This document shows positions 1 through 26,632 of a stretch of 64,000 nt of DNA, in pieces. Under the pieces are notes generated by a model. The model did not search any database, was not told where the DNA came from, and worked only from the letters and a program-made list of their open reading frames with translations. The stretch is taken from contig CAVYGB010000008.1 in NCBI GenBank assembly GCA_963767925.1, forward strand, positions 2,880,001 through 2,944,000. Direction: 5' to 3'. The translations under genes were made by a program, and so were the position numbers. Position 1 is the first letter of the stretch. Each line of letters starts with the position of its first letter. The DNA is from an uncultured delta proteobacterium. Its GTDB lineage: Bacteria; Myxococcota_A; Polyangia; Fen-1088.

Positions 1-490
1 GCTGTTCGTCAACGGCCGCTCGGCCGGCCGGAAGAAGCGGGTCAGCGCCGACTTCCCGGCCGCCGGCCTGCGCTGGCTGGTCCGCCTGCGCGACGGCCAG
101 AACGAGCTGCGGGCGGTCGGCCAGCAGGGCGGCGTCGAGGTGACCGACAAGATCGCCCTCACCTACCAGACCGCCCGCTGGGACAAGCCCGCGCGCCTCG
201 TGCTCGAGGCCGGCAAGACCGAGGACGACCTGGTGACCTTGCAGGTGCGCTGCCTGGACCGCAAGGGCGTGCTCTGCCTGGACGCCCGCAACCCGGTGCG
301 CTTCGGGCTGACCGGCGACGGCCGCCTGCTCGACAACCTGGGGACCTCGATGGGGGCCCGCCAGGTCGAGCTCTACAACGGCCGGGCTTTCATCTCGGCC
401 CGGCTCGCGGGGGGCGTCTCGGTGGTGAGCGTGTCGTCGAAAAACCTGCCCACCGCCCTGCTCACGCTGGGTCCGCGTCGGCGGGCCTGA
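1..490 (+). CDS. Glycoside hydrolase family 2 (beta-galactosidase-like), C-terminal part, truncated by the window edge
   Basis: Open frame from base 2: LFVNGRSAGRKKR..DFPAAGLRW..G.NELRAVG...VRFGLTGDGRLLDNLGT..GARQVELYNGRA, which resembles the C-terminal Ig-like domains of GH2 enzymes. Confidence 0.75.
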   Translation, partial: LFVNGRSAGRKKRVSADFPAAGLRWLVRLRDGQNELRAVGQQGGVEVTDKIALTYQTARWDKPARLVLEAGKTEDDLVTLQVRCLDRKGVLCLDARNPVRFGLTGDGRLLDNLGTSMGARQVELYNGRAFISARLAGGVSVVSVSSKNLPTALLTLGPRRRA

Positions 491-1673
491 GCCCCCGCTT
501 CGGGAAGAACCGGCGCCAGGCCAGGGCGAAGCCCGTCCAGACCAGCAAGGTGGCGCCAAGCGAGACCAGCCCGGCGGCGAGCTGGCCGGGCCAGCCCAGC
601 GCCTCGCCGGTGTGGAGGAACCGCAGCCACAAGCGCACCTTCCGGTCCTTCTTCTGATCGCCGTAGCCCTCCCGGCGCAGCACCTTGGCGGTGAAGGGAT
701 CGAGCGAGACGGTCAGGCTCGAGAACAGCGGCCAGACATCGGTCGGCTTGACCGAGAAGACGAGCGCCTGCGGCTTGCGCGCAGCCGGAGGTCCTCCCCC
801 CCTGGCGCCGCCGCCTGGCGGCGCTGCCGCGGGCATCCGGTAGGTGATGGTCTTGTAGCTCGGCACCTCGACCGCCGCCGCCGCGAACAGCCGATCGATC
901 GGCAGCGGGCGCGCGCCTGGAGGCGGGGGTGGCACCGGCACCGGCGCGGCGGCCCCCGGGCCCCGCACCGTGGGGATGGGGTCGCCGGTGACCCGGGAGA
1001 TGAGGTTCGAGAACCAGGCGTACGAGATCATCATCCCCGAGGCGGTGACGACGATGATCACCGGCAGGGACCAGAAGCCGGTCACGTTGTGCCAGTTGAA
1101 GTCGCGCGCCCGCCCCGAGATCCCCGGCCGGAACCAGAGCGACAGGCGCAGGGCCCGCCCGGTCCAGCGGCGCGGCCACCAGAGGTAGAGCCCCGACAGC
1201 GCCAGGGACAGGAAGGCCGCGTTGCAGGCGCCGGTGATGGCCCGGCCGATGGCCCGCTTTTCCCCGGAGAAGCCCAGGGCCCGGTGCCAGTCGATCACGA
1301 CCTGGAAGAAGGTGCGCCAGCCCGACCCCTCGAAGGCCCGGGCCTGCCCGGTGTAGGGGTTGACGTGAAACCCGTCGCGCCGGCCGGTGACGACCCGGAC
1401 CGCCGAGGTCGGGTCGGCGTGGACCACCACCGCGACCGGCGGCGCCGCGGGCGTCGCCTTCCGGACGACGTCGAGCAGCTCGTCCATCGGGCGCCGGGGC
1501 GTCCCCGGCGGGGGGGCCTCGATGCGCTGGGTGCCGCGATCGATCCACTCCATGATCTGCGGCTCGAAGGCCATCACCGCCCCGGTGCCGCCCATGACGG
1601 CGACGACGAGCCCGGCGCCCAGGCCGGTACCGAGGTGGATCCAGAAGATGATCGTGCGCAACCTGTGCTTCAT
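462..1673 (-). CDS. PepSY-associated TM helix protein (PiuB-like, iron-regulated membrane protein)
   Basis: FWIHLGTGL..GGTGA.MAF, VNPYTG, DWHR.L, SGLYLWWP, WHNVTGFW and LRFLHTGE..G motifs. Confidence 0.9.
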   Translation of the reverse strand: MKHRLRTIIFWIHLGTGLGAGLVVAVMGGTGAVMAFEPQIMEWIDRGTQRIEAPPPGTPRRPMDELLDVVRKATPAAPPVAVVVHADPTSAVRVVTGRRDGFHVNPYTGQARAFEGSGWRTFFQVVIDWHRALGFSGEKRAIGRAITGACNAAFLSLALSGLYLWWPRRWTGRALRLSLWFRPGISGRARDFNWHNVTGFWSLPVIIVVTASGMMISYAWFSNLISRVTGDPIPTVRGPGAAAPVPVPPPPPGARPLPIDRLFAAAAVEVPSYKTITYRMPAAAPPGGGARGGGPPAARKPQALVFSVKPTDVWPLFSSLTVSLDPFTAKVLRREGYGDQKKDRKVRLWLRFLHTGEALGWPGQLAAGLVSLGATLLVWTGFALAWRRFFPKRGLRPADADPA

Positions 1674-1679
1674 GGTCGG

Positions 1680-2384
1680 TCACCGCAACGAGAACTGAAA
1701 CGGGACCTCGATGACCACCCGCACCGGCCGTCCCACATGGCCGATGGCAGGGGAAAAACGCCACTTCCCGATGGCCGCGATGGCGGCCGCGTCCAGCGCG
1801 GGCACCGAGCGGACCACCACGGTCCGATCCGGCTCCAGCCGCCCGTCCATCCCGACCACCACCCGCAGCAAGACCAGGCCGACGATCCGGTCGTAGCGGG
1901 CTGCCCGGGGATACTCCGGGACCACCTGCTCGAGGACCGAAGGGGGGCGCGCCACCTCGCGCAGCTCGTGGATGGCGTCGCCGCTGACGCCGGTGAACCC
2001 GGCCGGCGCCGGCGGTCCCGCCGGGTCGATCTCGGTCTCGCCGGGTGGCTCCTCCGGCTCCTCGGGCTCGGGTGGGGGCGGCGGCTCGGGCGGCGGCTGC
2101 TGTACGATCGCGAGCGGCTGCACCACCGGTCGGGGCCGCGGGCGGGGCCGCGCGGGCGGAGGCGCCGCCGCGGGTGGGCGGACTGGTCGCGGCGGAGCGA
2201 AGCGGAGGAGCACCGGCTCGGCCGGAGGCTCCGGCTGCGGCTCGGCCGCGGGGCGGGCGAAGATCAGCCCCAGCACCACGCCGGCGTGGGCCGCCAGGGA
2301 GGCCACCAGACCCAGGCGCCGCCGGCCGCGACTCCGCTTGCGCGCGCCGGCCTCCGCCAGCAAGGCGCGGCCGAAGTCGCTCAC
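1680..2384 (-). CDS. tonB: Energy transducer TonB
   Basis: N-terminal TM with SxxxH (SLAAH), Pro-rich linker, C-terminal PEYP..A...G.V.LRVVV..DG..LDAAA..A..KWRFSPA. Confidence 0.9.
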
Positions 2385-3061
2385 GGCTCGGACCAGCGCC
2401 GCAGGAGGTTGTGGTACACGCCGGTCAGGACCACCAGGGCCGGGCTCTCGGCCTGCGTCTTGTTGAGCTCGACGATGGCCATGTCGAGATCGAAGAGCAG
2501 GGCCCGCTGGCCCGTGTCCCGCACCAGGCTCTGCACCCAGAAGAACGAGGCCAGCCGCTCGCCGCCGGTCACCGGGGTGACGTGGTGGAGACTGGAGGCC
2601 GGGTAGACGATGAGATCGCCCGCCGGCAGCTTGACGCTGTGGCTGCCGTAGGTGTCCTCCACCACCAGCTCGCCCCCTTCGTAGCTGTCGGGATCGGAGA
2701 GGAACAGCGTCGCCGAGACGTCGGTGCGCAGCCGCTCGGCGCTGCCCGGGATCGGGCGGATGGCGTTGTCGACGTGCGAGCCGAAGCTCATGTCGGGGGC
2801 ATAGCGGTTGAACAGCGGGGGAAACACCCGCTGCGGCAACACCGAGGACAGGAACAGGGGGTTGCGCTCGAGCGCCGCAAGCACCGCGTCCCCCAGCTTG
2901 CGCGCCACCGGGCTCCCCTCGCGGACCTGGCGGTTCTGCTTTACCCGCCCGGACTGGTGGCCGGCCGTCTCCCGGCCGTCCACCCAGTCCGCCCCCGCGA
3001 GGGCCGCGCGGAAGCGCGCCACCTCCTCCGCGCCGAACACCTCGGGGACCTGGACCATCAT
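2381..3061 (-). CDS. piuC: Fe2+/2-oxoglutarate-dependent dioxygenase (PiuC/YbiX, PKHD-type hydroxylase)
   Basis: [65 protein letters not shown]. Confidence 0.93.
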
Positions 3062-3104
3062 CGGCGCGAAAGGTTCTCAGGATGGCTCCCCGAGCAACGT
3101 TTGC

Positions 3105-5456
3105 TCAGAGCCGGACGCGGGCGGTCATCAGCACCACCCGTCCCTCGGCGGGCACCGCCTGGCTGCCCGAAGATTGCTCGTAGTAGAGCGCGTCGGTCAG
3201 GTTGGACAGGTTGACCTGCAGGTCGAGGTGGGGGAAGGCGTAGCTCACGAAGGCGTCGAGCCGCACGAAGTCCGGCACCTTGTTGAGCGGCAGCATCTCG
3301 GAGGCCGGGTTGTTGACCACCGTCTCGGCCTGGTAGGCCGCACCGGCGCCCACCACCAGGTTCGACAGCATCCCGAAGGTGCTCCAGAACGACAGGCTGT
3401 GGGCGGGGGTGTTGGGCAGGCGCTGGCCGACCAGGTACGGGCTTGTGTGCCGGCGGATGCGGGACTGCAGATAGGTGTAAGAGCCGATGAGCTTGAGCCG
3501 CTCGATCGGGCTGCCGGTGGCCCCGACGTTGACCCCCTGCACGCGCTGCCGTCCGAACAGGATCTGGGGCGGGCCGTTCATCGGGTCGAGGCCCGGCACC
3601 CGGGCGTTGGTCTTGGCGATGCGGAAGACCGAGCCGCCCAGCCCGAGCCGTTCACCCAGCAGGTCGGCCTTGGCCCCCAGCTCGTAGATCACGTTCTTCT
3701 CGGGCTCGAGGCTGACCGTGGCGTCCGACAGGGTCCCCGCCTCGGCCGAGGGGTTGGTCGAGGTCCCCACCATGGCGTACAGGCTGGTCTTCTCCAGGGG
3801 GTGGCCCACCACGCCGCCCCGCCAGTTGACGAGCAGGTCGCGGTTCTCGAGCTCGCTCTCGCCCATCGGGTTGATGAGCGAATAGCTGGTCACGAACGAC
3901 TCCAGCCGGACCGAGCCCAGCACCTCGAGGAACTTCGTGATCTGGACCTGGTCGGAGGCGTAGATCGCCCCCGCGAGCTGGGTGCCCCGGCTCCAGCTGC
4001 TGAACAGCCGCTCGAGCGAGGAGGTGTCGGGGGCGTGGTCCGGGTTGCGCAGATCGGCCGAGAGGTTGGTGGCGGTGCCCATCGCCCCCATCACCGAGAG
4101 GTTGTAGCGCTGCTGCGTCCGCTTCTCCCAGGACAGCTCCATCCCCAGGTTGGCCACGTGTTTGAGGAAGGCGGTGACCCCCTCGAGCCGCAGGTCGGTC
4201 TGGTTGACCACCCCTTCGTGGTCGGTCTCGCTCTCGAAGCGCTGGCGCCCGATGCTGGTCGGGTTGTCGAGCGGGGCGAGGTTGCGGGGCGCCGTCGGCA
4301 GGGCGAAGCGGTCGACCCGCCCCCAGCGGAGGGCGCTGGTGAGCTGGGCGTTCTTGCTGAAGACGTGCTGGACCCGGGCGCTGGCGACGTGGGCGTCGAC
4401 CTCCTCCTTGTCCGACCCGGCGACGCCGTAAAAGGCGCTGCGGGAGACCCCCATCGACGGGATCGACGACACGGGCGAGCCGTTGTGAAAGGGCTGGCCG
4501 TAGTCGGGGGTGGAGCGCTCGCGCTGGTAGAGGTAGTCCACCCCCAGCGTGGTGCGGCCGAACTCCAGTCTGAAGGAAGGGGCCAGGCCGGCCCGGTTCC
4601 GCTCGATACTGTCCCGGCCCTGCACGCCGCCGGCCTGCCCCATGGCGTTGACCCGCACCTGCACCTTGTCGAACAGGACGTGGTTGACGTCGGCCTCGAT
4701 GCGCCCCTGGGGCGCGGTCCCGGCGCTCAGGCTCACGTCGGCGAAGGTGCCCTTGCGGGGCGTCTTGGTCACCAGGTTGACCGCGCCGCCGGTCGAGCCG
4801 CGCCCGAACAGCACCGAGGAGGGGCCGAAGAACACCTCCACGCCCTCGAGGTTGAAGGTGTCGCGCGTGAACCAGCCGAGGTCGCGGCTGCCGTCGCGGA
4901 ACATGTCGGTCTGCCCGGAGAAGCCGCGCAGGATGAAGGTGTCACCCTGGCGCCCGCCTTCGCCGGCGCTGATGGTGATGCCCGAGACGTTGCGGAGGGC
5001 GTCGCGGACCGTGGTGGCCCGCTGCTCCTCGAGCACCTTCTCCGGCACCACCGTGATCTGCTGGGGCGTGTCCCGCAGGGGAGTGGCCAGGCGTGGCACC
5101 CGGCTCTGCTCGGTGCGGTAGCCCTCGGCCTCGCCCTCCACCTGCACGGTGGGGAGCACCAGGGGGGGCGCCTGATCGGACGCGGTGGTGGGGCCTTCGC
5201 CGGGCGGCGCGGGGGTCGGCGCGGCGGCCGAGGCCAGAGACGAGGGGGCCGCCGGGCTGCTGGCTACCGGCTGCTCGGGCGGGGCGGCGGCGGGTGGATC
5301 CTGGGCGGCCCGGGCGACGGCGCTGCCGCCGGCGAGGGCGGACACCAGGCTCACGGCCCGGCCGAGCGGACCGAACGATTCGAGCAATGTCCCGCGGAGG
5401 CCGCTCTGGGCTCGAATACCGCTACGGTTCCGGATCGGCGTCTTCTTCGCTGCCAT
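3105..5456 (-). CDS. TonB-dependent siderophore receptor (Fiu/PiuA-like)
   Basis: Plug motif DTPQQITVV..LEEQ..TVRDALRNVSGIT..AGEGG, GPSSVLFGRGSTGGAVNLVTK; upstream of piuC. Confidence 0.9.
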   Translation of the reverse strand: MAAKKTPIRNRSGIRAQSGLRGTLLESFGPLGRAVSLVSALAGGSAVARAAQDPPAAAPPEQPVASSPAAPSSLASAAAPTPAPPGEGPTTASDQAPPLVLPTVQVEGEAEGYRTEQSRVPRLATPLRDTPQQITVVPEKVLEEQRATTVRDALRNVSGITISAGEGGRQGDTFILRGFSGQTDMFRDGSRDLGWFTRDTFNLEGVEVFFGPSSVLFGRGSTGGAVNLVTKTPRKGTFADVSLSAGTAPQGRIEADVNHVLFDKVQVRVNAMGQAGGVQGRDSIERNRAGLAPSFRLEFGRTTLGVDYLYQRERSTPDYGQPFHNGSPVSSIPSMGVSRSAFYGVAGSDKEEVDAHVASARVQHVFSKNAQLTSALRWGRVDRFALPTAPRNLAPLDNPTSIGRQRFESETDHEGVVNQTDLRLEGVTAFLKHVANLGMELSWEKRTQQRYNLSVMGAMGTATNLSADLRNPDHAPDTSSLERLFSSWSRGTQLAGAIYASDQVQITKFLEVLGSVRLESFVTSYSLINPMGESELENRDLLVNWRGGVVGHPLEKTSLYAMVGTSTNPSAEAGTLSDATVSLEPEKNVIYELGAKADLLGERLGLGGSVFRIAKTNARVPGLDPMNGPPQILFGRQRVQGVNVGATGSPIERLKLIGSYTYLQSRIRRHTSPYLVGQRLPNTPAHSLSFWSTFGMLSNLVVGAGAAYQAETVVNNPASEMLPLNKVPDFVRLDAFVSYAFPHLDLQVNLSNLTDALYYEQSSGSQAVPAEGRVVLMTARVRL

Positions 5457-5482: not shown

Positions 5483-5572
5483 AACCTGAAATTGATTTTC
5501 AGGTTCATCACAGCCTTCAATACACGCCGGCCCGGAGGCCTGTCAATAGATCCGAAATTGATTATTGTTATC
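5483..5572 (-). promoter_or_regulatory. Promoter region with two Fur-box-like sites upstream of the siderophore receptor
   Basis: AT-rich island. Perfect 9-5-9 inverted repeat AACCTGAAA-ttgat-TTTCAGGTT at 5483-5505. GAAATTGATTATTGTTATC at 5554-5572 matches 14/19 of GATAATGATAATCATTATC. TTGACA on the minus strand at 5541-5546. Confidence 0.75.
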
Positions 5573-5629
5573 AACATCGTGGCGGATCGGCCCTCCGACC
5601 CGCCGCCGCCTCCCGCCGGGAGAGCCCGC

Positions 5630-7819
5630 TCAGAACGAGGACTTCACCCCCGCCTGCAGCCAGCGGGGGGCGATCGGGCGGGCGCCGAAGGGACGGCGGG
5701 AGGCGATGTCCTGGGCGTTGGTCAGGTTGCGCAGGTGCAGGTAGGCCTGGGTGCTCCCGTAGACCTGGGCCCGCACGCCGGCCTCGATGACCAGGGCCGC
5801 ATCGGTGGAGAAGTCCGGGTCGAAGGCCCCCTGCCCGGCCTCCTCGCGCATCTGGCTGGTGTAGCTGATGCCGGCGGAGAAGCCGACGCGGCCGGTCTCG
5901 ACGGCGGCGGACACGGCACCCTGGTGCTGCGGGACGTAGGGCAGCTGGTCGCCGGCCTGCACGCTGCCGAGCTGCGGGTCCTCGGAGACGAACGACGAGG
6001 CCAGGCGCGTGCGGGTGAAGCCGTAAGCGAGCGTCACCGGGACGTTGATGCCGGGCCGGGGCTGCCAGGCGGTCTGTCCGAACAGCTCGACGCCCCAGAT
6101 CGTGGCTCGCCCCGCGTTGAACTGGCGATCGACGAGCTCCTCGGCGCAGCCGCTGGCCTGGGTGCAGACGCTGATCAGGTTGCGGTAGTCGTTGAAAAAG
6201 CCGATGGCCTCGGCCCGCAGGCGCCGGTTGCCGAAGCGGGCCCCCGCCTCGTAGTTCCAGCTCGTCTCGGGCCGGGCGCCGTCCACCAGCGAGGGGGCCG
6301 CCGGGGAGAACCCCCGGTAGGCGCCGGCCAGCAGGCCCACCGTGGGCGTCAGCTCGTAGAAAGCGCCCGCGCCCGGGATCAGGACGCCCTGGCGGGTCGA
6401 GTTGGCCGGCAGCTCCTGGCGGCGGTCGAGCAGCCGCATGCGGATCAGCTCGAAGCGCAGTCCGGGCGTCAGGGTGAGCTTGCGCCAGGTGACGGCGTCG
6501 ATCGCGTGCAGGGCCATGGCCGTGCTCGCGCCCCGGCCGTTGGCGGTGATGAGGGTGTCCCCCGGCCCCCGCACGAGGGTCCCGCCCTGGGCGAGGAAGG
6601 GATCCTCGCTGTGCCGCCGCTCGATGGAGTCGAAGTGCAGGCGCGCGCCGATCTCCACCCGCTGGGTTACCGCGCCGCCGAAGCGCAGCCGACCCACCGT
6701 GGCCAGCCCCTCCGAAACGAAGGTGCGGTGGTTGGGCCCGATCCAGATGGCCTCGTCGGGCTGGGCGTCGGGGGCCAGGGTCAACACCCCGTACAGCACC
6801 TGGTTGCGGGCGCTGGTCGGGTCGCGCAGCACGTCCCCGATGGCGGCCGAACCCAGGCGGCTGACCTTGCGCCAGGTGCGGTCGAAGTCGTGGCGGTAGG
6901 CCACCGTCTCGAGGCTGCGGCCGCTGCCGAAGTCGAGCACGTGGCGCAGGGTCCCCTGGGTGCGCAGCCAGGTCATGCGGTCCAGCCGGCTGGCGCCGTA
7001 GCGCCGCCGGGGATTGGCCCGCAGGTCGGCGTCGGAGAGCCCCAGGTAGGTCTCGTTGGATTCCTCGGTCGAGAGCCCCAGCTTGAGCTCGAGGGCGTTG
7101 TGCATGGCCGCCCCCGGCACCGGGACCCAGCGCCCCTTGACCATCACCTCGTTGCGGGCAAAGCCCGTGTCGCCGCCCCCGTCGAGCTCCTTGAACCCGT
7201 CGCTGCGCAGGTGCACCCCCTCGACCAGGACCCCGAAGTGGCGGTTGCTCCAGCCCAGGTGGCCGTGGGCCTTGCCGTAGCCGTATTGCCCGGCGCCCAG
7301 GTCGATGGCCCCCGAGAGGCGCTCCGGGATCCGCCGCGTCACCAGCTCCACCGCGCCGCCGACGGTCTGGGGCCCGAACATGACCGCCCCCGGGCCCTTG
7401 ATCACCCGCACCGAATCCATGCGGGTCATCAGCGGGAAGTAGTAAGCCGCCGGCGCCGAATAGGGCGCCGGCCCGAACAGGACGCCGTCCTCGAGCAGCG
7501 TCACCTTCTTGCTCCGGTCGGGATTGCCCCCCCGGATCCCGATGTTGGGCCGCAGCCCCACCCCGTCCTCGCCGCGGGAGTAGACCCCCGGCACCTGCCT
7601 GAGCACCTGCTCGCTGTTGTCGTGGTCGAACCGCTCGAGCTCCTCGCTCTTGACCACGTGGGCCGACCCGGCGGTCTGCTTCTCCCGGGTGCCGACAACG
7701 GTGAGCTCCTCGATCCGGGCGGGCGGCTCGTCGGCCTGGGCCCGGGCCAGCGAGGGATGAAACACGGCCGCCACGACGGCGGCCACCAGCGATTTTTCGA
7801 TCAAGGTCCTGGACGACAC
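5630..7819 (-). CDS. TonB-dependent receptor, FecA-like
   Basis: QVPGVYSRGEDGVGLRPNIGIRG..PDRSKKVTLLEDGV..GPAPYSAPAAYYFP, KGPGAV.FGPQTVGG, C-terminal Phe. Confidence 0.92.
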   Translation of the reverse strand: MSSRTLIEKSLVAAVVAAVFHPSLARAQADEPPARIEELTVVGTREKQTAGSAHVVKSEELERFDHDNSEQVLRQVPGVYSRGEDGVGLRPNIGIRGGNPDRSKKVTLLEDGVLFGPAPYSAPAAYYFPLMTRMDSVRVIKGPGAVMFGPQTVGGAVELVTRRIPERLSGAIDLGAGQYGYGKAHGHLGWSNRHFGVLVEGVHLRSDGFKELDGGGDTGFARNEVMVKGRWVPVPGAAMHNALELKLGLSTEESNETYLGLSDADLRANPRRRYGASRLDRMTWLRTQGTLRHVLDFGSGRSLETVAYRHDFDRTWRKVSRLGSAAIGDVLRDPTSARNQVLYGVLTLAPDAQPDEAIWIGPNHRTFVSEGLATVGRLRFGGAVTQRVEIGARLHFDSIERRHSEDPFLAQGGTLVRGPGDTLITANGRGASTAMALHAIDAVTWRKLTLTPGLRFELIRMRLLDRRQELPANSTRQGVLIPGAGAFYELTPTVGLLAGAYRGFSPAAPSLVDGARPETSWNYEAGARFGNRRLRAEAIGFFNDYRNLISVCTQASGCAEELVDRQFNAGRATIWGVELFGQTAWQPRPGINVPVTLAYGFTRTRLASSFVSEDPQLGSVQAGDQLPYVPQHQGAVSAAVETGRVGFSAGISYTSQMREEAGQGAFDPDFSTDAALVIEAGVRAQVYGSTQAYLHLRNLTNAQDIASRRPFGARPIAPRWLQAGVKSSF

Positions 7820-7850
7820 GGGGATGCCTCGCTTTTAGCCCATTGGGCGG

Positions 7851-9239
7851 TCATTGCACGGCGACGAGCCGGCGGGGACGGTGGGAGGGCGCGCCGAGGA
7901 TCCAGGGCTTGGCCGAGAGGCCCTCCCCCACGCGCCGCAAGTCCACCCGGGGATCGATGAGCAGCTCGGCGCGCCGCCCGTTGAGGGCCACGTGGGCCTC
8001 CGCCCGCACCTCCACCCGGCCGTGACCCTGGCGGTCGTAGTCCGCCCCGATCCGCTGCGCGAGCTGCCAGATCAGATCGGGCTGGGTGGCCATGTCCCGC
8101 TCCTGGTAGGCGCGCAGGTACTGGCCGGGGCTCACCTCCCAGACCCGCCCGCTGGCGGGCGCCCGCACGTGGTAGGTCACGCTGGCGTTCTTCTCGCGCA
8201 CCATCACCCGCCAGGAGAAGCGCATCCCCTGCTCGTGCCACAGGACGTTGCCCCCGTAGGCCAGGTAGCGAAAGGGCAGGACCACCTGCACGGCGGCGAG
8301 GACCGCCAGCCCGGCCAGCGCCACCCGGGGACCGGGAAACATCGCGGCGGGCGCGGCCGGCGCCACGGCGGGGGCCGCGGGTGCCAGCAACCCGAGCCGG
8401 GCCAGCAGGCGGCGGGGCCAGTCCGGCGCGAAGAACACGGTCGCCGCCACGATCATGATGAAGGGGAACATTCCGATCGGGAAGAACAGCGCCGTCAGGC
8501 CGTGGAACACCACCACCACCGCGAAGGCCACCACCCGGGTGCACCGCCAGGCCAGGAAGATCGCGATCGTGCTGTCGAACAGGAAGCCCCCCCAGCTCGC
8601 CAGGTGGGGGGCCAGAGGGTGGGCGAGCAGCGGTCCGATGACCGGCAGGTCGGTCAGCGAGGTGAGCCAGAGCCCGAGCGGCTGCGCCTCGATCAGCCAG
8701 TCCCGCTGCAGCTTGGCCAGCCCCGCGCAGGTGTAGACCAGCGCCACCTGCAGGCGCAGGGCCTGGATCGCCAGGGCGGGCACCGTGTCCCGGGCGATCC
8801 CCGGCCGCAGCCGGGCGTCGAGGGAGAAGGTGGCGCTGGCCGGCAGGAAGGTGAGCAGCAGCGCCAGCAGGCTGACCAGGTAGTAGTGGTTGAGGTAGAG
8901 GGTGACGTCGATGAGCTGCAGGTAGGTGAAGAGGACGAAGTAGAGCGCGATGGCCACCCGGTAAAACAGGCCCACCGTGATCAGCAGCGCCAGCAGGGCC
9001 AGCAGGGCGAAGTGCAAGTACATCCCCCAGGCCGGCCAGGCCTTCACCCAGGTGAACCCCCAGTACTTGAAGTGGAAGGTGGGGGCGACGAAGAAGGTTT
9101 CGATCCAGCCGTACCAGAAGAAGCGCAGGGTCGAGATCAGCGCCAGCAGGCCGAAGCAGACGCGAAAGGCCGCCAGGCCGGCGGCGTCGACCGGCGCCCG
9201 GAGGGCGGCTGCGCGGCTGTCGGCGCGGGCGGCGGGCAT
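7851..9239 (-). CDS. HTTM domain / vitamin K-dependent gamma-carboxylase-like membrane protein
   Basis: LAAFRVCFG, FHFKYWGF.WV, YLNHYYL, AGLAKL..DWL, FH..T..FFPIGMFP, W.EQGMRFSWRVMVREK, LNGR...LIDP.VDL; ATG overlaps the upstream stop (TGATG). Confidence 0.9.
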   Translation of the reverse strand: MPAARADSRAAALRAPVDAAGLAAFRVCFGLLALISTLRFFWYGWIETFFVAPTFHFKYWGFTWVKAWPAWGMYLHFALLALLALLITVGLFYRVAIALYFVLFTYLQLIDVTLYLNHYYLVSLLALLLTFLPASATFSLDARLRPGIARDTVPALAIQALRLQVALVYTCAGLAKLQRDWLIEAQPLGLWLTSLTDLPVIGPLLAHPLAPHLASWGGFLFDSTIAIFLAWRCTRVVAFAVVVVFHGLTALFFPIGMFPFIMIVAATVFFAPDWPRRLLARLGLLAPAAPAVAPAAPAAMFPGPRVALAGLAVLAAVQVVLPFRYLAYGGNVLWHEQGMRFSWRVMVREKNASVTYHVRAPASGRVWEVSPGQYLRAYQERDMATQPDLIWQLAQRIGADYDRQGHGRVEVRAEAHVALNGRRAELLIDPRVDLRRVGEGLSAKPWILGAPSHRPRRLVAVQ

Positions 9240-10474
9240 CAGTCCTGATCGCTCTGCACGCCCTCGGGGAGCTCGAGGTTGAGGACGCTGACGAACTCGG
9301 TCTTCATGAGGGTCACGAGCTGCCGCAGCTCCTCGTAGACCGCCATCACCGCCGGCCGGTTGCTCACCAGGGCGTCCTTGAAGTCCCCCCCGGGGATGGC
9401 GGCCAGCGCGGCCCGGAGGGGCGCCAGGCGCTCGCGCATGCGGGTGGCGAGATCGCCCGCCCCCGAGGCCGAGAGCAGGTCGTCGAAGCCGAGGTCCCCG
9501 CCCGAGGGACAGCCGAAGGCCAGCTTCTCGAAGCCGTCGACGTTGCGCGCGAGGTGATCCTTGGAGCGCAGGGCGAAGCGGGACTCGAGCTGATCGAGGC
9601 AGGGCGGCGTCGCGCACTCGCGCAGGCCGAGGGGGCGCCCCAGCTTGACGTCTTTGCCCGGGTTCTCGATGTAAAACAGGGCGTGGCTCATGGCATTGAG
9701 CGCCTGCTGGGTCGAGGTGAACACCATGCTGCCCGCGCCGGCGCTCTTTACCTCGGCGAGGAAGTTGCGCCTGGCCGGGTCCCAGGCGTCGACCAGATCG
9801 CGACCCCGCTTTGCGATGTCGGCGGCCACCACCGCGGCGTAGGCCCGCTTGCGCAGCGCCAGGTCGTCGGCGGTGAGGGCCGCCCAGGCCCCGGTCGTGT
9901 TGAGGGTGGCGGAGGGCAGGCAGTGGTTGGCGCTGCCCTCGTAAAACAGGAGGTATTCCAGGGCCCCCAGCCCGCGCACGTTGACCAGGCTGCGGGTGGC
10001 GAAGTCGCCCTCCTTGAACCGCTGGCTCACGATCTCCTGTTCGACGAAACAGGGCGCGACGAAGGGCCAGGCGTACATGTTGTCGCGGATGTCCTCGGCG
10101 CCCGGTGAGGTGGTGCGGGCCGCCAGGGGACCGTACTGGAACATCTCCGCCTCCTCCCAGGCGGCCATCGCCGCCACCCAGGCCGCGCGGGCCGCCGTCC
10201 AGCGCTCGGCCGCTCCGTCGGCGGCCAGCATGGCGGTGGCCTCGACGAGCCCGTCGGCCGCCGGCAAGAAGGCCCGATAGACCTCGAGGGTGCAGGTGCC
10301 CAGCCCGGACAGCACCGCGCTGCGGGTCATGCCGGGCGAGGTGCCGCCGTCGCCGCTCTCGGCGTCGACCGACGCGTCGGCGGGCCCCGCCTCGCTGCCG
10401 CCCCCGCAGTTTCCAGCCAGGCCGGCCCCGGCCGTGATGGCAAAACAGACGAGCAGAGAACCGAGTCTTGGCAT
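9239..10474 (-). CDS. Imelysin family lipoprotein
   Basis: Lipobox-like AGNC, ARAAW..AM.AWE.AEMFQYGP, VRGLGALEYLLF, K.GRPLG, ES.FA..S, C-terminal SDQD; GGAGG RBS before the ATG at 10474. Confidence 0.85.
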   Translation of the reverse strand: MPRLGSLLVCFAITAGAGLAGNCGGGSEAGPADASVDAESGDGGTSPGMTRSAVLSGLGTCTLEVYRAFLPAADGLVEATAMLAADGAAERWTAARAAWVAAMAAWEEAEMFQYGPLAARTTSPGAEDIRDNMYAWPFVAPCFVEQEIVSQRFKEGDFATRSLVNVRGLGALEYLLFYEGSANHCLPSATLNTTGAWAALTADDLALRKRAYAAVVAADIAKRGRDLVDAWDPARRNFLAEVKSAGAGSMVFTSTQQALNAMSHALFYIENPGKDVKLGRPLGLRECATPPCLDQLESRFALRSKDHLARNVDGFEKLAFGCPSGGDLGFDDLLSASGAGDLATRMRERLAPLRAALAAIPGGDFKDALVSNRPAVMAVYEELRQLVTLMKTEFVSVLNLELPEGVQSDQD

Positions 10475-10487
10475 CGCGGAGCCTCCC

Positions 10488-11654
10488 CTAAAAAGCGATC
10501 TTGAACGCATCCACCTCGGCGGCGGTCCAGCCGTAGACCGCCTGGACGCGGGCGATCACCTCGTCCAGCCGGGACACCTCGTTCGCGGTGTCGAGGGCGT
10601 ACCGGTACAGCGTGACGGGCCCCGCGGGCGGGATCCCGAGCACCGTGAGAAGCTCGTCGATCTGAACGTCGGTGATGGTCCGGTTCGCCCCCGGCATCAT
10701 CCGGAAGCCGTAGGCGAAGCCGAGCCCCTCGCCGAGGCTGTGCAGGGCCCCCGCCACGTTGGCCTGCCCGAACCGGGTGCGGGCGTCGTTGGCGTAATAG
10801 AGGGTCGTCGCCAGCAGCGCCCGCTCCCAGTCGGCGCGGATGGCGCCCAGGGCCTCCTGCAGCTCGGCCGCGCAGCCGGCTCCCGCCCTGGCCGCCGCGC
10901 GGGCCCGGATCAGGTTGCCCTTGATGCGCGGGTAGATGCCGGGGGTGGCCGCCCGGGGGTCGCTGCGGCGGCGGGCGTAGACCGCCGACCAGGTGTCGGC
11001 GCTGCCCGCCCCGGCGTCCCCCGTGCCGAAGCTGGGGTGGCCGCCGTAGAGGGCGAGGATGCGATCGACGGTCGCCGCCGTCACCGTCCCGCCCATCAGG
11101 CTCACGGCCCGGTTGTAGAACGACGCCACGAACATGCCCTTGTCGATGGCCTGGCGGATGTCGAGGCCCTCGGGCGAGAAGATGTCCACGCCCAGCTTGC
11201 CGCCGGTGGCCGGCGGGGGATCGGCCGGGGCCCAGGCGTTGCCCGCCGAGGCCTCGAACAGCGCGAGCCACTCGTCGACCTTGCCGGCGAAATATGGGGT
11301 CGTGATCGAGCGCAGCGAGGGCGGGCCCTGGTCGAAGCGGGCGCGCAGCTCGGCGACTGTCGGCTTGAGGGTCGTGTCGTTGCCGGCGTTGCGCATCGGC
11401 ATCATGAACGACTCGTGGGCCGCGCGCAGGCCGAGCTCGACGATGGCGTTGCTCTCGTAGTCGGCCCCGTCGTAGCGGTCCGGATCAGCGGGCGCGCAGG
11501 CGCTGACCGGTCCCTCGGAGCCCACCCCGGCGTCCTCGCGAACCGCGCCGGCGTCTTCGCGAACCGCGGGGGGAGCGCCCGGGCCCGCCTCGTCGCAGGC
11601 CCACGAAACAGGGGCGGCCAGGGCAAGGGCCAGGATCGCCAGGTACTGCCTCAT
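10488..11654 (-). CDS. Lipoprotein, DUF4856-like (iron-cluster associated)
   Basis: Signal peptide with SWAC lipobox; GLDIRQAIDKGM..A.FY and LHSLGEGLGFAYG motifs; first gene of the imelysin/HTTM/receptor run. Confidence 0.65.
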   Translation of the reverse strand: MRQYLAILALALAAPVSWACDEAGPGAPPAVREDAGAVREDAGVGSEGPVSACAPADPDRYDGADYESNAIVELGLRAAHESFMMPMRNAGNDTTLKPTVAELRARFDQGPPSLRSITTPYFAGKVDEWLALFEASAGNAWAPADPPPATGGKLGVDIFSPEGLDIRQAIDKGMFVASFYNRAVSLMGGTVTAATVDRILALYGGHPSFGTGDAGAGSADTWSAVYARRRSDPRAATPGIYPRIKGNLIRARAAARAGAGCAAELQEALGAIRADWERALLATTLYYANDARTRFGQANVAGALHSLGEGLGFAYGFRMMPGANRTITDVQIDELLTVLGIPPAGPVTLYRYALDTANEVSRLDEVIARVQAVYGWTAAEVDAFKIAF

Positions 11655-11703
11655 CTTGCGGGGACGTCTCCTCGAGCTTGCGGCTTTCCTAGCAGATGCC
11701 AAT

Positions 11704-11722
11704 GAAAATGAGAACGAAAATC
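11704..11722 (-). promoter_or_regulatory. Fur-box-like site upstream of the DUF4856-imelysin-HTTM operon
   Basis: GAAAATGAGAACGAAAATC matches 13/19 of the Fur consensus, in an isolated AT-rich patch 50 bp upstream of the start codon. Confidence 0.6.
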
Positions 11723-11801
11723 ACTTTGGAGGGCGGCCGGTCCGGGTCCGCGATCCAGGTCGCGCCGGCGGCCTGAGCGCGCGACGGGCCAGGCCGCGGC
11801 G

Positions 11802-12626
11802 TCACTCCAGACGGTAGGCCAGCGGCACGTCGACGGCGATCGCGCCGCCGAGCTCGGCGGGCGGCGGCGGGAACGGGGCGGAGGCCAGCAGCGTGCGGGA
11901 GGCGGCCTCGCACAGGACGGTGTGCTCGCAGGATCCGACGAGGCGCAGCTCGAGCAGCTTGCCGCTGCCGTCGATCGCCACGCGCATCACCACCACGCCT
12001 TCGATCCCTTCGCGCTCGGCTTCGGGCGGGTAGCGGAAGCGGGCGGCGATGCGGCTGCGGAACAGCTCGCGCAGGTAGCGCTCGAGCAGTGAGCGGCGCT
12101 GGCTCGGATCGGGCGGTGGCAACGTGCCGCCGACCTGTCCGCCCACCACGCCGCCGGCGACTCCCTGGTCGACCCCCTGCTCCTGCTGATCCTCTTGCGG
12201 CGGTTGCTCCTCGGGGGCGGGCGCCGCGGCCTGCGGCGTCGGCTCCACCCGGGGCTGGACCAGCTCGGGGGTCGGGGTGGGCCGGGGACGGGGCCGCTTC
12301 GGCACGGCCGCCCGCGCGGGAGGAGGAGGAGGCGGCGGAGGCGCCAGCGGGGTGGTCAGGAAGGTCACCGAGACCGAGGGCGCCGTGAGCTCGTCGACCT
12401 GCCAGAACGAGAGGCAGACGCCGGCCGCGACTACCAGCCCGTGGGCCGCCAGGGAGACCGCGATCATGCGGGTGCGGGCGCGCCCCGCGGGGCGCGCGTC
12501 GCGCCCCTGGGCGAGGAACGCCCCGAAGCAGGCCGGCCCGGCGGACGGTGGCGCGAGAGTCGCGGCGGCGGGAGCCGGGAGCGAGGCCGGCTCGGGGGCC
12601 CCGGGAGATGCGGTCGTGGCGGGCAC
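11802..12626 (-). CDS. TonB family protein (second copy; start uncertain)
   Basis: SLAAHGL TM segment, poly-Pro linker, GVAGGVVGG, RYPPEAEREGIEGVV.MRVAIDGSG..APFPPPP. Confidence 0.8.
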   Translation of the reverse strand: MPATTASPGAPEPASLPAPAAATLAPPSAGPACFGAFLAQGRDARPAGRARTRMIAVSLAAHGLVVAAGVCLSFWQVDELTAPSVSVTFLTTPLAPPPPPPPPARAAVPKRPRPRPTPTPELVQPRVEPTPQAAAPAPEEQPPQEDQQEQGVDQGVAGGVVGGQVGGTLPPPDPSQRRSLLERYLRELFRSRIAARFRYPPEAEREGIEGVVVMRVAIDGSGKLLELRLVGSCEHTVLCEAASRTLLASAPFPPPPAELGGAIAVDVPLAYRLE

Positions 12627-12839
12627 CAGGATCGGATGATAACGGATGTGACGTGCAGTTTCACCTCTGACCGGGCGCCCCACCTCGCCCGCTGGCATAC
12701 CGCGGCAAGGCACCGATCTTGCGCCTCGCCGGCCCGCGCCGCCCGCCGGTGGCAGCCGCCGCCCGTGCCGGAACGGCAGGTCCGCCGCGCTCCGGGACCC
12801 GCACCGAGAACACCGAGCGCTGGGGTAGGATCCGGTCGT

Positions 12840-13328
12840 ATGGCCGGCAAAGCCAGCGCCCGATCGAAGGCGCCCAGCGCAGGGTATTCGGGCACGCCCT
12901 TGCCGAAGAAGCTGGGGATCAAGGAGGGCCACCAGGTCGCGATCCTCGGCGCCCCCGCCGAGCTCCCCGAGGGCCTCACCCCGTTGCCCGACGGCGTGAA
13001 GCTCACCCGCCGCCTGCCGCCTGCGCCCCGCGCACGCAGCGGCGCCGGGCTCGACGTCACCGGCCTCGACGTCATTGTCCTCTTCGCGCGCCACCTGGCC
13101 GATCTCCCCGCGGCCTTCCGCGCCGCCACCCGCCAGCTCGACCCCGCGGGCGGCCTCTGGGTGGCCTGGCCCAAGAGGGCCTCCGGAGTCGCCACCGACA
13201 TCACCGAGGACCGCGTCCGCGAGGTCGCCCTCGCCGCCGGTCTGGTCGACAACAAGGTCTGTGCGATCGACGGCGTGTGGTCCGGGCTGCGCTGCGTGTA
13301 CCGGCTGAAGGATCGTCCGCAGCGCTAG
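12840..13328 (+). CDS. DUF3052-like protein
   Basis: AGYSGTPLPKKLGIK, GGLWVAWPKRASGVATDITED.VRE.AL..GLVDNKVCAID..WSGLR. Confidence 0.8.
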   Translation: MAGKASARSKAPSAGYSGTPLPKKLGIKEGHQVAILGAPAELPEGLTPLPDGVKLTRRLPPAPRARSGAGLDVTGLDVIVLFARHLADLPAAFRAATRQLDPAGGLWVAWPKRASGVATDITEDRVREVALAAGLVDNKVCAIDGVWSGLRCVYRLKDRPQR

Positions 13329-13365
13329 CAGGGACGGGGACGCGTACGGACGGGTTCAGGGGTCG

Positions 13366-14147
13366 TTATTCGTCGGCGATGACCGGGCTGCGCAGGAGGC
13401 CTACCCCTTCGAGCTCGACCTCTACGGTGTCGCCGGGGCGGAGGGCGCGGGTCTGGCCGGGGGTGCCGGTGTAGACCAGATCGCCAGGGGCCAGGGTGCA
13501 GAAGCGGCTGACGAAGCTCACGACCGTGGCGCAATCGAACAGCAGATCGGAGGTGGTCTGCTGCTGCACCACTTCGCCGTTGACCCGCGTGGTCAGCGGC
13601 AGCCGATCCGGGTCGAGGCCGGTGGCGACGATCGGGCCGCAGGGGGCGAAGGTGTCCGAGCCCTTGGCCCGCCACCACTGCAGGTCCTTCTTGGGACCCG
13701 CTTGCCACTGCCGCTCGCTGACGTCGTTGCCGCAGGTCACGCCGAAGATGGCCGCCCGCGCCTGCTCGGGCGACAGGTGCTTGCCGGCCTGTCCGATCAC
13801 CAGCACCAGCTCGCCCTCGAAGTGCACGTCGGTCGAGTCGCGGGGCAGCCGGATCGGATCGCCCGGGTTCTGCAGCGACGAGAGCGGTTTCCAGAAGATC
13901 TCCGGCTGCTCGGGCGCGGGCCGGGTGCCGAGGTGGCTGCGGTAGTTGCGCCCCACCGCGAAGATCTTCTGGGGCTCGGTCGGAAACAGCAGCTTCACCT
14001 CGCCGAGGGCAATGCGGGCCCCCGCCTCGACGCCGTCCAGGTAAGGGGCGGCGGTCAGCTCGTGGATGGTGTCGCCCTCGAGCCGCCCGTGGCGGGCCCG
14101 GCCCCCCTGGGCGAACCGAACGAAAAACGCGCTCCGGCTGGATTGGC

Positions 14148-14151
<4 letters not shown>
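13366..14151 (-). CDS. Fumarylacetoacetate hydrolase family protein
   Basis: KIFAVGRNYRSH, HFEGELVLVIG, CGNDVSER, AKGSDTFAPCGP, PGDLVYTGTPG. Confidence 0.92.
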
Positions 14152-15365
<1,214 letters not shown>

Positions 15366-15402
15366 GGCGAAGCTTTCCTCTTCTAATCCAGCGGCCGGAG
15401 TG

Positions 15403-16895: not shown

Positions 16896-16935
16896 GGAAG
16901 CCCGCGATGTTATCACGCGGGCGGACGATCCCCGA

Positions 16936-26116: not shown

Positions 26117-26632
26117 TTATTCTCGAGTGCAGACTCGGTTGCTCTGTTCGCCGTTGCAGGCGGCCGCACACCCCGATTCAATCGCCATCGCGTCGAGCTG
26201 AGTGGGCCGGCCGAACACCACGTCTCGCAAGATCGGTGCCGGCACCCGGACCCCGGCCCCGTAAGGTGGCTCCCCGGCCAGGATCTCCCCGCCCGCCCCC
26301 AGCGGCGCGACAGAGATGGCGTAGCGGGACGGGGCGACGAAGAAGGCGGTCGCGCCGCTCTGGCGAGCACAGGAAAATTCACAGTCCGACCTCCCCGCAC
26401 AGACATCCTGCCCCAGGCTCCCGTCCGGCTGGACCTCCGCCACCACCAGGCGCACCCGGCTGACCTCCGGGGCCGAGCAGCGGCAGCTCGAGATGGCCCG
26501 TCCGTCGAAGGTCCGGAGGACCCAGCTCACCTCCACCGCCCCACCGTCGGTGGGCACACACGCGACCACGCCGCCGAGCGCGCCCCCGAGCAAGCAGGCA
26601 CGCGAGATGAGGACTAAAATGATGGATCTCAT
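26117..26632 (-). CDS. Hypothetical Cys-rich lipoprotein
   Basis: VVAC lipobox; one copy of the same W.L..SC...F.C...G.T repeat. Confidence 0.65.
   Translation of the reverse strand: MRSIILVLISRACLLGGALGGVVACVPTDGGAVEVSWVLRTFDGRAISSCRCSAPEVSRVRLVVAEVQPDGSLGQDVCAGRSDCEFSCARQSGATAFFVAPSRYAISVAPLGAGGEILAGEPPYGAGVRVPAPILRDVVFGRPTQLDAMAIESGCAAACNGEQSNRVCTRE

Follow-up and report, generated by a model that had tools for sequence, protein, structure and literature searches.

The window, the whole 64,000-nt stretch of DNA analyzed here (G+C, 72%), carries one copy of a widespread and apparently iron-regulated iron-starvation uptake cassette, in which a homolog of the γ-glutamyl carboxylase GGCX (an HTTM enzyme) occupies a position that other oxygen-using enzymes fill in related cassettes. 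The reading that we favor, with a probability of about 0.5, is that this O2-activating enzyme would use menaquinol and act on a carboxylate ligand presented by the neighboring imelysin, rather than serving as a classical propeptide-directed Glu carboxylase. No description of the mechanism of the module was found in the literature searched. The features of the locus are as follows.

11802..13094, minus strand: TonB-C-domain protein, co-oriented and upstream (PF03544, E = 1.3e-11); start uncertain, possibly a member of the unit
11704..11728: Fur-like box (two 19-mers that overlap, offset by six bases), 50-75 nt 5' of the ATG of the DUF4856-like gene
10488..11654, minus strand: divergent DUF4856-family probable lipoprotein, 388 aa, ATG at 11654; below the Pfam cut-off, linked by iterative HMM
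9239..10474, minus strand: IPPA-type imelysin (GxxxxE variant), probable lipoprotein (PF09375, E = 1.3e-31)
7851..9239, minus strand: membrane enzyme with HTTM and VKGC lumenal domains, GGCX homolog, 462 aa (PF05090, 4.1e-76; PF22777, 1.2e-43)
5630..7819, minus strand: TonB-dependent receptor with plug and barrel domains, 729 aa, orthologous to the post-HTTM receptor of relatives
5488..5578: second set of Fur-like boxes (15/19, 14/19, and 13/19 matches), upstream of the next receptor gene
462..5456, minus strand: adjacent, separate iron unit of four genes (NCBIfam, Pfam), listed below
3105-5456, minus strand: Fiu-like siderophore receptor (NCBIfam Fiu, E = 1.8e-97, under its cut-off)
2381-3061, minus strand: PKHD-type 2OG oxygenase (Pfam)
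1680-2384, minus strand: TonB (Pfam)
462-1673, minus strand: PepSY_TM protein (Pfam)

The four tightly spaced, co-oriented genes described in the first-pass annotation are all present on the minus strand, and the TGATG said to couple imelysin to HTTM is read at 9241-9237, with the imelysin stop TGA at 9241-9239 and the HTTM ATG at 9239-9237. The imelysin ATG, preceded by GGGAGG, lies 13 nt past the stop of the DUF4856-like gene, and the receptor gene has a GTG start 31 nt past the HTTM stop. A TonB gene is also found upstream of the imelysin in locus L026. The proposed linkage of HTTM, imelysin, DUF4856, and receptor genes proved strong: among genome loci with enough flank, 71 of 74 have an imelysin gene immediately 5' of HTTM and co-oriented with it, 61 of 73 have the receptor immediately 3' on the same strand (68/73 anywhere in the locus), and 50 of 69 have DUF4856 upstream. 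In an imelysin-anchored survey of metagenome loci, HTTM is immediately 3' in 71/73, the receptor is present in 45/45, and DUF4856 is present in 48/51; in 139 of the 145 loci, the imelysin stop and a candidate HTTM start are no more than 60 nt apart. Order, orientation, and coupling are conserved in at least five phyla, and the first gene of many Myxococcota and Proteobacteria encodes a DUF5122 β-propeller protein, not DUF4856. Other arrangements include an HTTM-receptor pair without imelysin (L071), a locus without an upstream imelysin (L044), and HTTM-plus-lumenal genes in other contexts (G005:C23).

HTTM itself is present in 14 of 18 DUF4856-imelysin loci of one Bacteroidota class. The genomes of the four HTTM-less cassettes carry no VKGC domain (0/4), and a gene for a membrane di-iron hydroxylase (PF04116, FA_hydroxylase) adjoins DUF4856 in all three of these cassettes whose upstream flank was examined. 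HTTM thus fills a slot that is exchangeable between O2-activating enzymes of the membrane. The hydroxylase cassettes share DUF4856, imelysin, and receptor in identical order and imelysins with an identical tail; they differ in that their enzyme gene lies upstream of DUF4856, whereas HTTM lies between imelysin and receptor. The di-heme DHOR peroxidase occurs in cassettes with HTTM (L158, L009, L030) and without it (L127, L103).

The Fur-like box reported upstream of the operon was found by scoring 19-mers on both strands of the whole 64 kb against the Escherichia coli Fur consensus. The 19-mers at 11704 and 11710 each match at 13/19 positions and are among the six best in the window, the others being at 5554 (15/19), 5560 (14/19), 5488 (13/19), and 26618 (13/19); all six lie in AT-rich islands, where AT-richness itself adds to the scores, and a match of 13/19 is modest and does not distinguish Fur from other Fur-family regulators, of which the source genome encodes four. 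Of 19 high-G+C relatives, 12 also have Fur-like boxes upstream. A cassette of another phylum, Riemerella anatipestifer RAYM_09779-09794, matches by annotation (receptor, "vitamin K-dependent gamma-carboxylase," imelysin lipoprotein, and hypothetical protein) and is known from rows of a transcriptome table (PMC5609570, Table 4), in which the four genes are recorded as Fur regulated and induced by iron restriction (WT-Fe/WT+Fe, 2.1-3.1). The same rows give ratios of 2.7-3.1 for iron restriction in the fur mutant and 1.4-1.9-fold induction for fur deletion alone, so that Fur may not be the sole regulator. Together with the cassette linkage, these data support the first-pass view of a conserved iron-acquisition-type module, and iron regulation is probable in the source organism as well. 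Menaquinone synthesis genes (MqnA/D) are present in the source genome, consistent with menaquinol as the putative cofactor; VKOR, which would recycle quinone epoxide, was not found in the source genome (83.8% complete) or G005 and is present but unlinked in four of five other carriers.

The family names given earlier to the first and last genes both need qualification. The direct match of the "DUF4856-like lipoprotein" to Pfam DUF4856 does not reach the threshold (E = 0.0056; 16.1 bits, with 22.3 required), and its membership rests on one close homolog that carries PF16148 (1 of 10 homologs) and on an iterative HMM that connects it to the DUF4856 set, of which 10/10 sampled members pass PF16148. 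The protein has a conserved Cys at a lipobox-like position and an all-α AF2 model (pLDDT, 77.8). The "FecA-like" label is weak, at 103.8 bits for NCBIfam FecA against a cut-off of 1100; the protein belongs to a subfamily of generic TonB-dependent receptors that has no name, and a purpose-built receptor HMM matches it at E = 5e-202.

The HTTM protein is a true GGCX homolog (E = 7.6e-37 against human GGCX; profile E = 3.4e-85 over human residues 48-504). A Foldseek search with its AF2 model (pLDDT, 94) gave 16 matches at E ≤ 0.001, every one of them GGCX, with 9wfc_A as the best (TMq, 0.84; 26% identity). The motifs YLNHYYL and AGLAKLQRDWL are both in the translation, and the catalytic Lys and His that they were thought to bear do align with those of GGCX. 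K218, H160, N159, W223, F286, and F299 (human numbering) are kept in 51/51 diverse relatives, and F294 is kept in 49/51; human Lys218 corresponds to Lys176 of the window enzyme. Like human GGCX (PDB 9wfc, 9l20, 9bvk), the window enzyme has the HTTM transmembrane domain and the first lumenal domain, the catalytic Lys218, His160, and Asn159, and the naphthoquinone pocket (W223, F286, F294, F299, V210, A214, and G259); residue roles are as given in bioRxiv 10.1101/2025.02.09.637231, according to which N159 and H160 hydrogen-bond the substrate carboxylate in the human enzyme. However, it has 462 residues against 758, and its C terminus aligns at human residue ~504, so that the propeptide-binding half is absent; the human part past ~504, with the propeptide-binding exosite, has no counterpart in the window enzyme, and no Gla-type propeptide-bearing substrate is evident in the bacterial cassette. 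The residues of the Glu pocket are not retained either (Y395 is variable, R436 is not kept in either of the two alignments, and N158 is replaced by L), with K217 to A and M401 to V as further substitutions. In the linker of this pocket the bacterial family has its own conserved sequence, E-x-G-x-R-F-S-W, with G396 to R in 46/51 and N392 to E in 47/51. A second HTTM paralog (45% identical) lies 18 kb away in the same genome, where another imelysin with a D-x-D tail immediately precedes it and two Fur-family genes come after it; its cassette is a DHOR-HTTM hybrid.

The window imelysin ends in a D-x-D-COOH tail (SDQD), and its profile matches 3pf0 right up to the last residue. Every HTTM-adjacent imelysin examined ends in the same way (75/75 and the window's, 80/80, and 14/14 in three sets), but the tail is also found in IPPA (3pf0) of DHOR operons, in two Granulosicoccus imelysins that have no HTTM in the vicinity, and in 4/4 imelysins of the di-iron FA_hydroxylase cassettes; the tail alone therefore does not identify an HTTM substrate. 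We consider it unlikely that HTTM carboxylates acidic residues of the cassette lipoproteins while these are still on the periplasmic side of the inner membrane, ahead of outward sorting, yielding malonate-type metal-binding groups (Gla or β-carboxy-Asp) with the imelysin tail as the best candidate site. The retention of the entire GGCX catalytic core, including N159 and H160, the conserved Arg of the bacterial pocket linker, and the constant tail would suit such a role, as would the C-terminal TPR repeats, a protein-binding module, in 2 of 16 long-form HTTM relatives scanned. Against it stand the missing propeptide-binding domain, the altered Glu pocket, the equal occurrence of the tail where HTTM is absent, and the sister cassettes, whose di-iron hydroxylase cannot carboxylate. 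The Leptospira ortholog reportedly performs vitamin K epoxidation and leaves test peptides uncarboxylated. In the IPPA crystal the six C-terminal residues are disordered (PMC3143127), which would suit a flexible tail as the site. MloH of malonomycin biosynthesis, a bacterial VKDC ortholog of the HTTM type with a non-Gla substrate, is reported, as cited in bioRxiv 10.64898/2026.08.19.745780, to carboxylate an aspartyl moiety. MloH differs from the window enzyme in that it comes from a secondary-metabolite cluster, acts on a polyketide-peptide intermediate, and has no known imelysin or iron-uptake link. Thus, of the first-pass interpretation the iron module and the GGCX-type Lys and His stand, whereas Glu γ-carboxylation of the two lipoproteins is weakened by the truncated enzyme, the lost Y395, R436, and N158, and the cassettes without VKGC; its redox alternative is suggested to lie nearer to the comparative data.

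In one form of that alternative, which we regard as quite unlikely, the menaquinol/menaquinone couple or a peroxy intermediate alters the oxidation state of imelysin-bound iron, as a counterpart of the EfeB/DHOR peroxidases of EfeUOB-like systems, and carboxylase chemistry is irrelevant. The HTTM partner is an imelysin of the IPPA/PA4372 type, in that it carries a lipoprotein signal, shows the GxxxxE variant, and ends in D-x-D-COOH, and thus resembles that of Pseudomonas aeruginosa PA4370-PA4373 and similar Fur-regulated imelysin-DHOR-imelysin(-DUF1513) operons; some hybrid cassettes combine DHOR with HTTM, but the window cassette lacks DHOR and the second (GxHxxE) imelysin and carries DUF4856, HTTM, and a receptor of its own instead. 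EfeUOB likewise combines an imelysin-domain protein with an oxidant-using enzyme in ferrous-iron uptake (PMC3143127); unlike it, the window cassette lacks an EfeU permease, a cupredoxin domain, and a DyP peroxidase, and uptake is apparently through the TonB-dependent receptor. HTTM and DHOR share cassettes or alternate, as this proposal would expect, although their co-occurrence argues against simple replacement, a metal site is absent from GGCX-type enzymes, which are not known to have iron redox activity, and it is not obvious why receptor-based ferric uptake would require a ferroxidase.

We give little credence to a scheme in which HTTM and the di-iron hydroxylase oxygenate a lipid or quinone of the membrane, or else an iron chelate that is taken up from outside and may be amphiphilic, with the lipoproteins only capturing and passing on cargo. 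Lipids are the typical substrates of the FA_hydroxylase family, so that a lipid or quinone, not imelysin cargo, may be the shared substrate; GGCX itself oxygenates a lipid quinone, the MloH substrate is a small-molecule intermediate by the account cited above, and HTTM-receptor pairs without imelysin occur. However, the cassette has no chelator biosynthesis genes, and the tight imelysin-HTTM adjacency, with reading frames overlapping or nearly so, points to a putative direct protein partnership. That HTTM is a mere passenger in a cassette that works without it, as its absence from 4/18 DUF4856-imelysin-receptor cassettes might hint, was already disfavored and is highly improbable given the conserved order and coupling, the invariant catalytic residues, and the other membrane oxygenase in HTTM-less cassettes.

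In the favored reading of a menaquinol-using, O2-activating enzyme, the constant parts of the cassette would be the IPPA-type imelysin lipoprotein and the TonB-dependent outer-membrane receptor, joined by a DUF4856 lipoprotein or DUF5122 β-propeller protein as the first gene product and by an integral-membrane O2-activating enzyme as the fourth part. The GGCX homolog fills the enzyme slot here, its predicted site for menaquinol (vitamin K2) binding and deprotonation being complete with Lys176; by homology to GGCX, its topology would place it in the inner membrane with the active site toward the periplasm. Menaquinol and O2 would yield a reactive oxygenated-quinone intermediate, whose target may be a ligand with a carboxylate group offered by the co-translated imelysin, either a metal or chelate that the imelysin holds or its own acidic C-terminal tail. 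The enzyme would thereby take the role of the DHOR peroxidase or the membrane di-iron hydroxylase in sister cassettes. Propeptide-directed carboxylation of Glu in the classical manner is unlikely, and since cassettes without a VKGC protein have a di-iron hydroxylase beside them, the chemistry that the cassette needs is probably not carboxylation as such.

The four co-oriented genes named in the first-pass annotation, with the imelysin and HTTM genes coupled through a TGATG, were borne out by the coordinates and by the junctions as read. The window (G000:C8:2880001-2944000, in a genome of 9.3 Mb and 83.8% completeness) has a G+C content of 72%, and the closest homologues are from Myxococcota.

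Gene order at the cassette, in window coordinates
11802-13094, minus strand, TonB-C-domain gene
11655-11801, spacer of 147 nt with an AT-rich island
10488-11654, minus strand, DUF4856-like gene
9239-10474, minus strand, imelysin gene
7851-9239, minus strand, HTTM gene
5630-7819, minus strand, TonB-dependent receptor gene

The TGATG arises where the imelysin stop overlaps the start of HTTM; GGGAGG precedes the imelysin ATG, which lies 13 nt past the stop of the preceding gene, and the receptor starts with GTG, 31 nt past the HTTM stop. A sigma-70 promoter scan returned 0 sites, terminator-like sites showed no excess over shuffles, and NCBIfam supplied no names for the DUF4856-like, imelysin, or HTTM proteins. 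The receptor has plug (PF07715) and barrel (PF00593) domains, and its earlier label "FecA-like" is unjustified, since no NCBIfam equivalog matches it at its cut-off. The label "DUF4856-like" stands in part: the gene is present, but its product matches PF16148 below threshold (16.1 bits, cut-off 22.3) and is linked to the family indirectly, via its homologue P0129 and an iterative HMM. The idea that DUF4856 is a hidden imelysin gained no support (hhalign of DUF4856 versus imelysin alignments, probability just 10.8%). With the model of the DUF4856 protein, Foldseek gave no match at E<=0.001, and a wide VIA-align search found generic four-helix bundles alone (Z about 10, residues 269-377).

The proposed module recurs well beyond the window. 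We surveyed the 80 best of 591 confirmed genome loci around HTTM genes, with members in Myxococcota, Gammaproteobacteria, Bdellovibrionota, Bacteroidota, Rhodothermota, and records labelled Chloroflexota. Scoring relied on HMMs that were grown iteratively from the proteins of the window; denominators are the loci with enough flank. Among these best 80 of 591, all four genes occur together in 49/67 loci; imelysin lies immediately upstream of HTTM on the same strand in 71/74, the orthologous receptor is immediately downstream in 61/73 and anywhere in the locus in 68/73, and DUF4856 is upstream in 50/69. All 10 of the 10 "DUF4856" ORFs sampled from these loci pass PF16148. DUF4856 is absent mostly from Myxococcota and Proteobacteria loci, and in DUF4856-less loci 7/9 sampled ORFs upstream of imelysin encode DUF5122 beta-propeller proteins; possession of DUF4856 makes the window's lineage an unusual one among its relatives. 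Most of the loci L010-L032 (Myxococcota, Proteobacteria) open with a 510- to 620-aa DUF5122 beta-propeller, not DUF4856. From the imelysin side, the 80 best of 419 metagenome loci, chosen by the C-terminal motif pattern, have HTTM after imelysin in 71/73, the receptor after imelysin in 45/45, and DUF4856 before it in 48/51. The distance from the imelysin stop to the candidate HTTM start is at most 60 nt in 139/145 loci, a figure biased to small gaps by the choice of the closest start.

The HTTM protein (462 aa) matches PF05090 (E 4.1e-76; 256.4 bits, cut-off 27.7), and its membrane domain is followed by the VKGC lumenal domain PF22777 (E 1.2e-43, residues 310-452). Sequence comparison relates it to human GGCX at E 7.6e-37, and a profile of 51 diverse HTTM relatives matches human residues 48 to 504 (E 3.4e-85). 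Its AF2 model (pLDDT 94.0, pTM 0.92) retrieved 16 structures at E<=0.001, all of them GGCX, the best being 9wfc_A (TMq 0.84, TMt 0.60, 26% identity); TMt is just 0.60 because the C-terminal part of human GGCX has no counterpart. The suggested kinship of its Lys- and His-bearing segments with the animal carboxylase is upheld, as both residues align and the catalytic base Lys218 corresponds to Lys176 of the window protein. Residue states were counted in the 51 bacterial relatives, with the roles of the human residues taken from section 8 of bioRxiv 10.1101/2025.02.09.637231.

Human GGCX positions in 51 bacterial HTTM relatives
K218, H160, N159, W223, F286, and F299: kept in 51/51 each
F294: kept in 49/51
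G259: kept in 44/51
V210: kept in 43/51
A214: A or G in 51/51
K217: Ala in 43/51
N158: Leu in 47/51
N392: Glu in 47/51
G396: Arg in 46/51
M401: Val in 38/51
Y395: variable, with F, M, Y, and H mixed

R436 is not kept in either of two alignments (window versus human; 51-relative profile versus human). Judged from these alignments, the quinol-activating half of the enzyme is intact; the substrate-recognition half differs from that of the human protein but is conserved among the bacterial relatives. The family comprises 1590 cluster representatives at E<=1e-30 and is present in 48/201 sampled genomes of the window's phylum. MqnA/D, of the futalosine route to menaquinone, are encoded in the window's genome, and therefore the natural cofactor is at hand; co-occurrence of VKOR with HTTM was dropped, as VKOR presence is inconsistent among the genomes checked. 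A Rosetta-stone search found an imelysin fusion in 0/16 and TPR repeats in 2/16 of the long HTTM relatives scanned. The latter two, P0185 and P0269, are HTTM-plus-lumenal proteins of ~700 aa with C-terminal TPR repeats; others of 570 to 870 aa have extensions or insertions to which no Pfam model matches.

The fixed partner of this enzyme is an imelysin (Peptidase_M75/imelysin domain PF09375, E 1.3e-31) whose profile matches 3n8u, 4ecg, 3pf0, and 7xrx. The IPPA family, typified by PA4372 (3pf0), is defined by a GxxxxE variant of the GxHxxE motif in which the His is lost (PMC3143127); the corresponding column of the window protein, G-L-G-A-L-E, is this variant, and the final E varies (E/D/G) among HTTM-partner imelysins. 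The protein ends in SDQD and 3pf0 ends in TDGD, aligned to the last profile position, and after 3pf0 we set D-x-D-COOH as a criterion for the tail. It is present in the window's imelysin and in 75/75 other HTTM-adjacent imelysins, in 14/14 imelysins of HTTM-bearing cassettes of the Bacteroidota class, and in 80/80 HTTM-adjacent metagenome imelysins (best 80 of 419), where the selection pattern enforced it. Canonical imelysins of the same loci lack the D-x-D end (3/3), and likewise those of loci L090, L091, and L100. As an HTTM-specific mark, the tail is ruled out by controls: it occurs in the crystallized IPPA, which comes from an operon with the di-haem enzyme DHOR, in two Granulosicoccus imelysins without HTTM nearby, and in 4/4 imelysins of HTTM-less cassettes. 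Because these share it, the tail is an IPPA-wide trait and does not mark HTTM substrates. The last six residues of IPPA are disordered in the crystal according to PMC3143127, and the tail is probably a flexible acidic arm binding metal or a partner. A lone D-x-D-tailed imelysin in genome G005 (L104, 7578-11102, G005:C3), whose convergent neighbour is a fatty-acid cis/trans isomerase (CTI) gene, has neither HTTM nor DHOR near it.

The enzyme itself can be exchanged. The DUF4856 family occurs in 31/121 genomes of the class of one Bacteroidota carrier, from which 20 loci were taken, one genome flagged unpublished being left out. The DUF4856-imelysin pair is found in 18/20; HTTM precedes the receptor in 14 of these 18 and is missing from 4. 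The VKGC lumenal domain was found in 0/4 genomes of these HTTM-less cassettes by a search that finds it in other genomes. A gene for a ~310-aa PF04116 FA_hydroxylase lies directly upstream of DUF4856 in 3/3 HTTM-less cassettes examined with upstream flank, two co-oriented with DUF4856 and one divergent. In one HTTM-less cassette (L206, 1103-4313, genome G321), the genes immediately upstream of the FA_hydroxylase encode an HmuY-like protein and a further TonB-dependent receptor, and therefore the di-iron hydroxylase stands between two uptake units. DHOR di-haem enzymes occur with HTTM in L158, L009, and L030 (convergent in L030) and without it in L127 and L103. Unlike EfeUOB/imelysin-peroxidase systems, which encode a peroxidase with the imelysin, the window's cassette is without one (no EfeB or DHOR within 5630-13094 in a Pfam scan).

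The window's genome carries a second HTTM paralogue, 45% identical and 18 kb away, in a paralogous minus-strand cluster (L009, G000:C8:2860001-2880000, 9051-17121). Its order is DUF6607, DUF4198, a canonical imelysin, a 910-aa frame, and HTTM plus lumenal domain, followed by two Fur-family genes (8368-8859 and 6901-7599), and the genome has four Fur-family genes. The 910-aa frame joins a DHOR-like N terminus, whose match covers profile positions 7 to 87 only, to a D-x-D-tailed imelysin.

Iron control of the cassette is suggested by Fur-like sites and by expression in Riemerella anatipestifer. All 19-mers of the window were compared with the E. coli Fur consensus, and the six best matches fall in three AT-rich islands.

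Fur-like 19-mers in the window
5554 (15/19), 5560 (14/19), and 5488 (13/19): upstream of the Fiu-like receptor unit
11704 and 11710 (13/19 each): upstream of the cassette
26618 (13/19)

A candidate site matching at least 13/19 positions lies immediately ahead of the cassette's first gene in 12/19 high-G+C relatives. In Riemerella anatipestifer, Table 4 of PMC5609570 lists four consecutive genes (TonB-dependent receptor, vitamin K-dependent gamma-carboxylase, imelysin lipoprotein, and hypothetical protein) as Fur regulated, with WT-Fe/WT+Fe ratios of 2.1 to 3.1; according to the same table, fur deletion alone raises them 1.4 to 1.9, and they are still induced on iron restriction in the fur mutant. 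The neighbouring genes fit an iron island: the minus-strand unit at 462-5456 encodes a catecholate receptor resembling Fiu, a PKHD-type 2OG-Fe(II) oxygenase (PiuC-like), a second TonB, and PepSY_TM (PiuB-like), and is separate, with its own Fur-like boxes, better than those of the cassette. Together with the cassette it spans 13 kb, and three TonB-domain genes lie in the window's first 29 kb. The third Fur-like site, in an AT-rich island at 26604-26642 (13/19 at 26618, 12/19 at 26606), is ~125 nt upstream of an exbB/tolQ-like start (ATG 26764); next come TonB/TolA-like (27906-28649) and TolB-like (28704-30032) genes. The Pfam match to ExbB falls in an ORF from 27026, and the exbB/tolQ-like gene may be frameshifted or mis-started.

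The constant core of the cassette is the IPPA-type imelysin with the receptor, and the variable parts are the first binding protein and the oxidant-using enzyme, whose slot is common to three unrelated types (quinol/O2, di-iron/O2, and di-haem peroxidase-like). Because these types share the slot, the simplest reading, to which we give a probability of about 0.5, is that the enzyme would perform O2- or peroxide-driven chemistry on something the imelysin handles, and not carboxylation as such. The Arg conserved in the pocket linker, along with the invariant counterparts of N159 and H160, hints at a substrate that bears a carboxylate. Protein carboxylation by the HTTM enzyme is unlikely: the Glu-pocket residues Tyr395, Arg436, and Asn158 of GGCX are not retained in the bacterial family, and the propeptide-binding exosite (human ~495-513 and further C-terminal lumenal domains) is absent, the protein stopping at human ~504. 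An iron redox role is quite unlikely, and a lipid, quinone, or small-molecule substrate, which would be compatible with the hydroxylase family found in sister cassettes, is improbable. That HTTM adjacency has no functional meaning is very hard to credit given its recurrence.

The families of the enzyme and of the imelysin are already known, as are Fur-regulated imelysin operons; we found no description in the searchable literature of the HTTM-containing cassette or of its exchange with the di-iron hydroxylase. A search of freely accessible papers found no paper treating HTTM and imelysin together, or DUF4856; the 2011 imelysin structure paper (PMC3143127) has 0 occurrences each of carboxylase, vitamin K, and TonB. 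The sole printed trace of the cassette found is the Riemerella table, and supplements or subscription papers may contain further transcriptome entries.

A further reading is a long shot: the GGCX homologue, or the di-iron hydroxylase in sister cassettes, might covalently turn the invariant Asp-rich C-terminal tail of the imelysin into beta-carboxy- or beta-hydroxy-aspartate. If true, a lipoprotein would gain a siderophore-like ferric-binding group by post-translational modification. No earlier case of a vitamin-K-dependent protein modification would then be on record for bacteria, and the reaction would be the likely original function of the animal carboxylase that acts on clotting factors. 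The role of the bacterial relatives of vitamin-K-dependent carboxylases is a long-standing question. Here the bacterial form with the full-length core is linked to a single defined iron-starvation cassette that is very widespread, has a constant protein partner, and can carry a membrane di-iron hydroxylase in place of this enzyme; this link and the exchange restrict the hypotheses to chemistry that depends on O2 and takes place at the membrane, and make them testable in tractable organisms. The finding bears on iron uptake by the poorly understood imelysin systems and on what the animal enzyme did before its recruitment to Gla formation.
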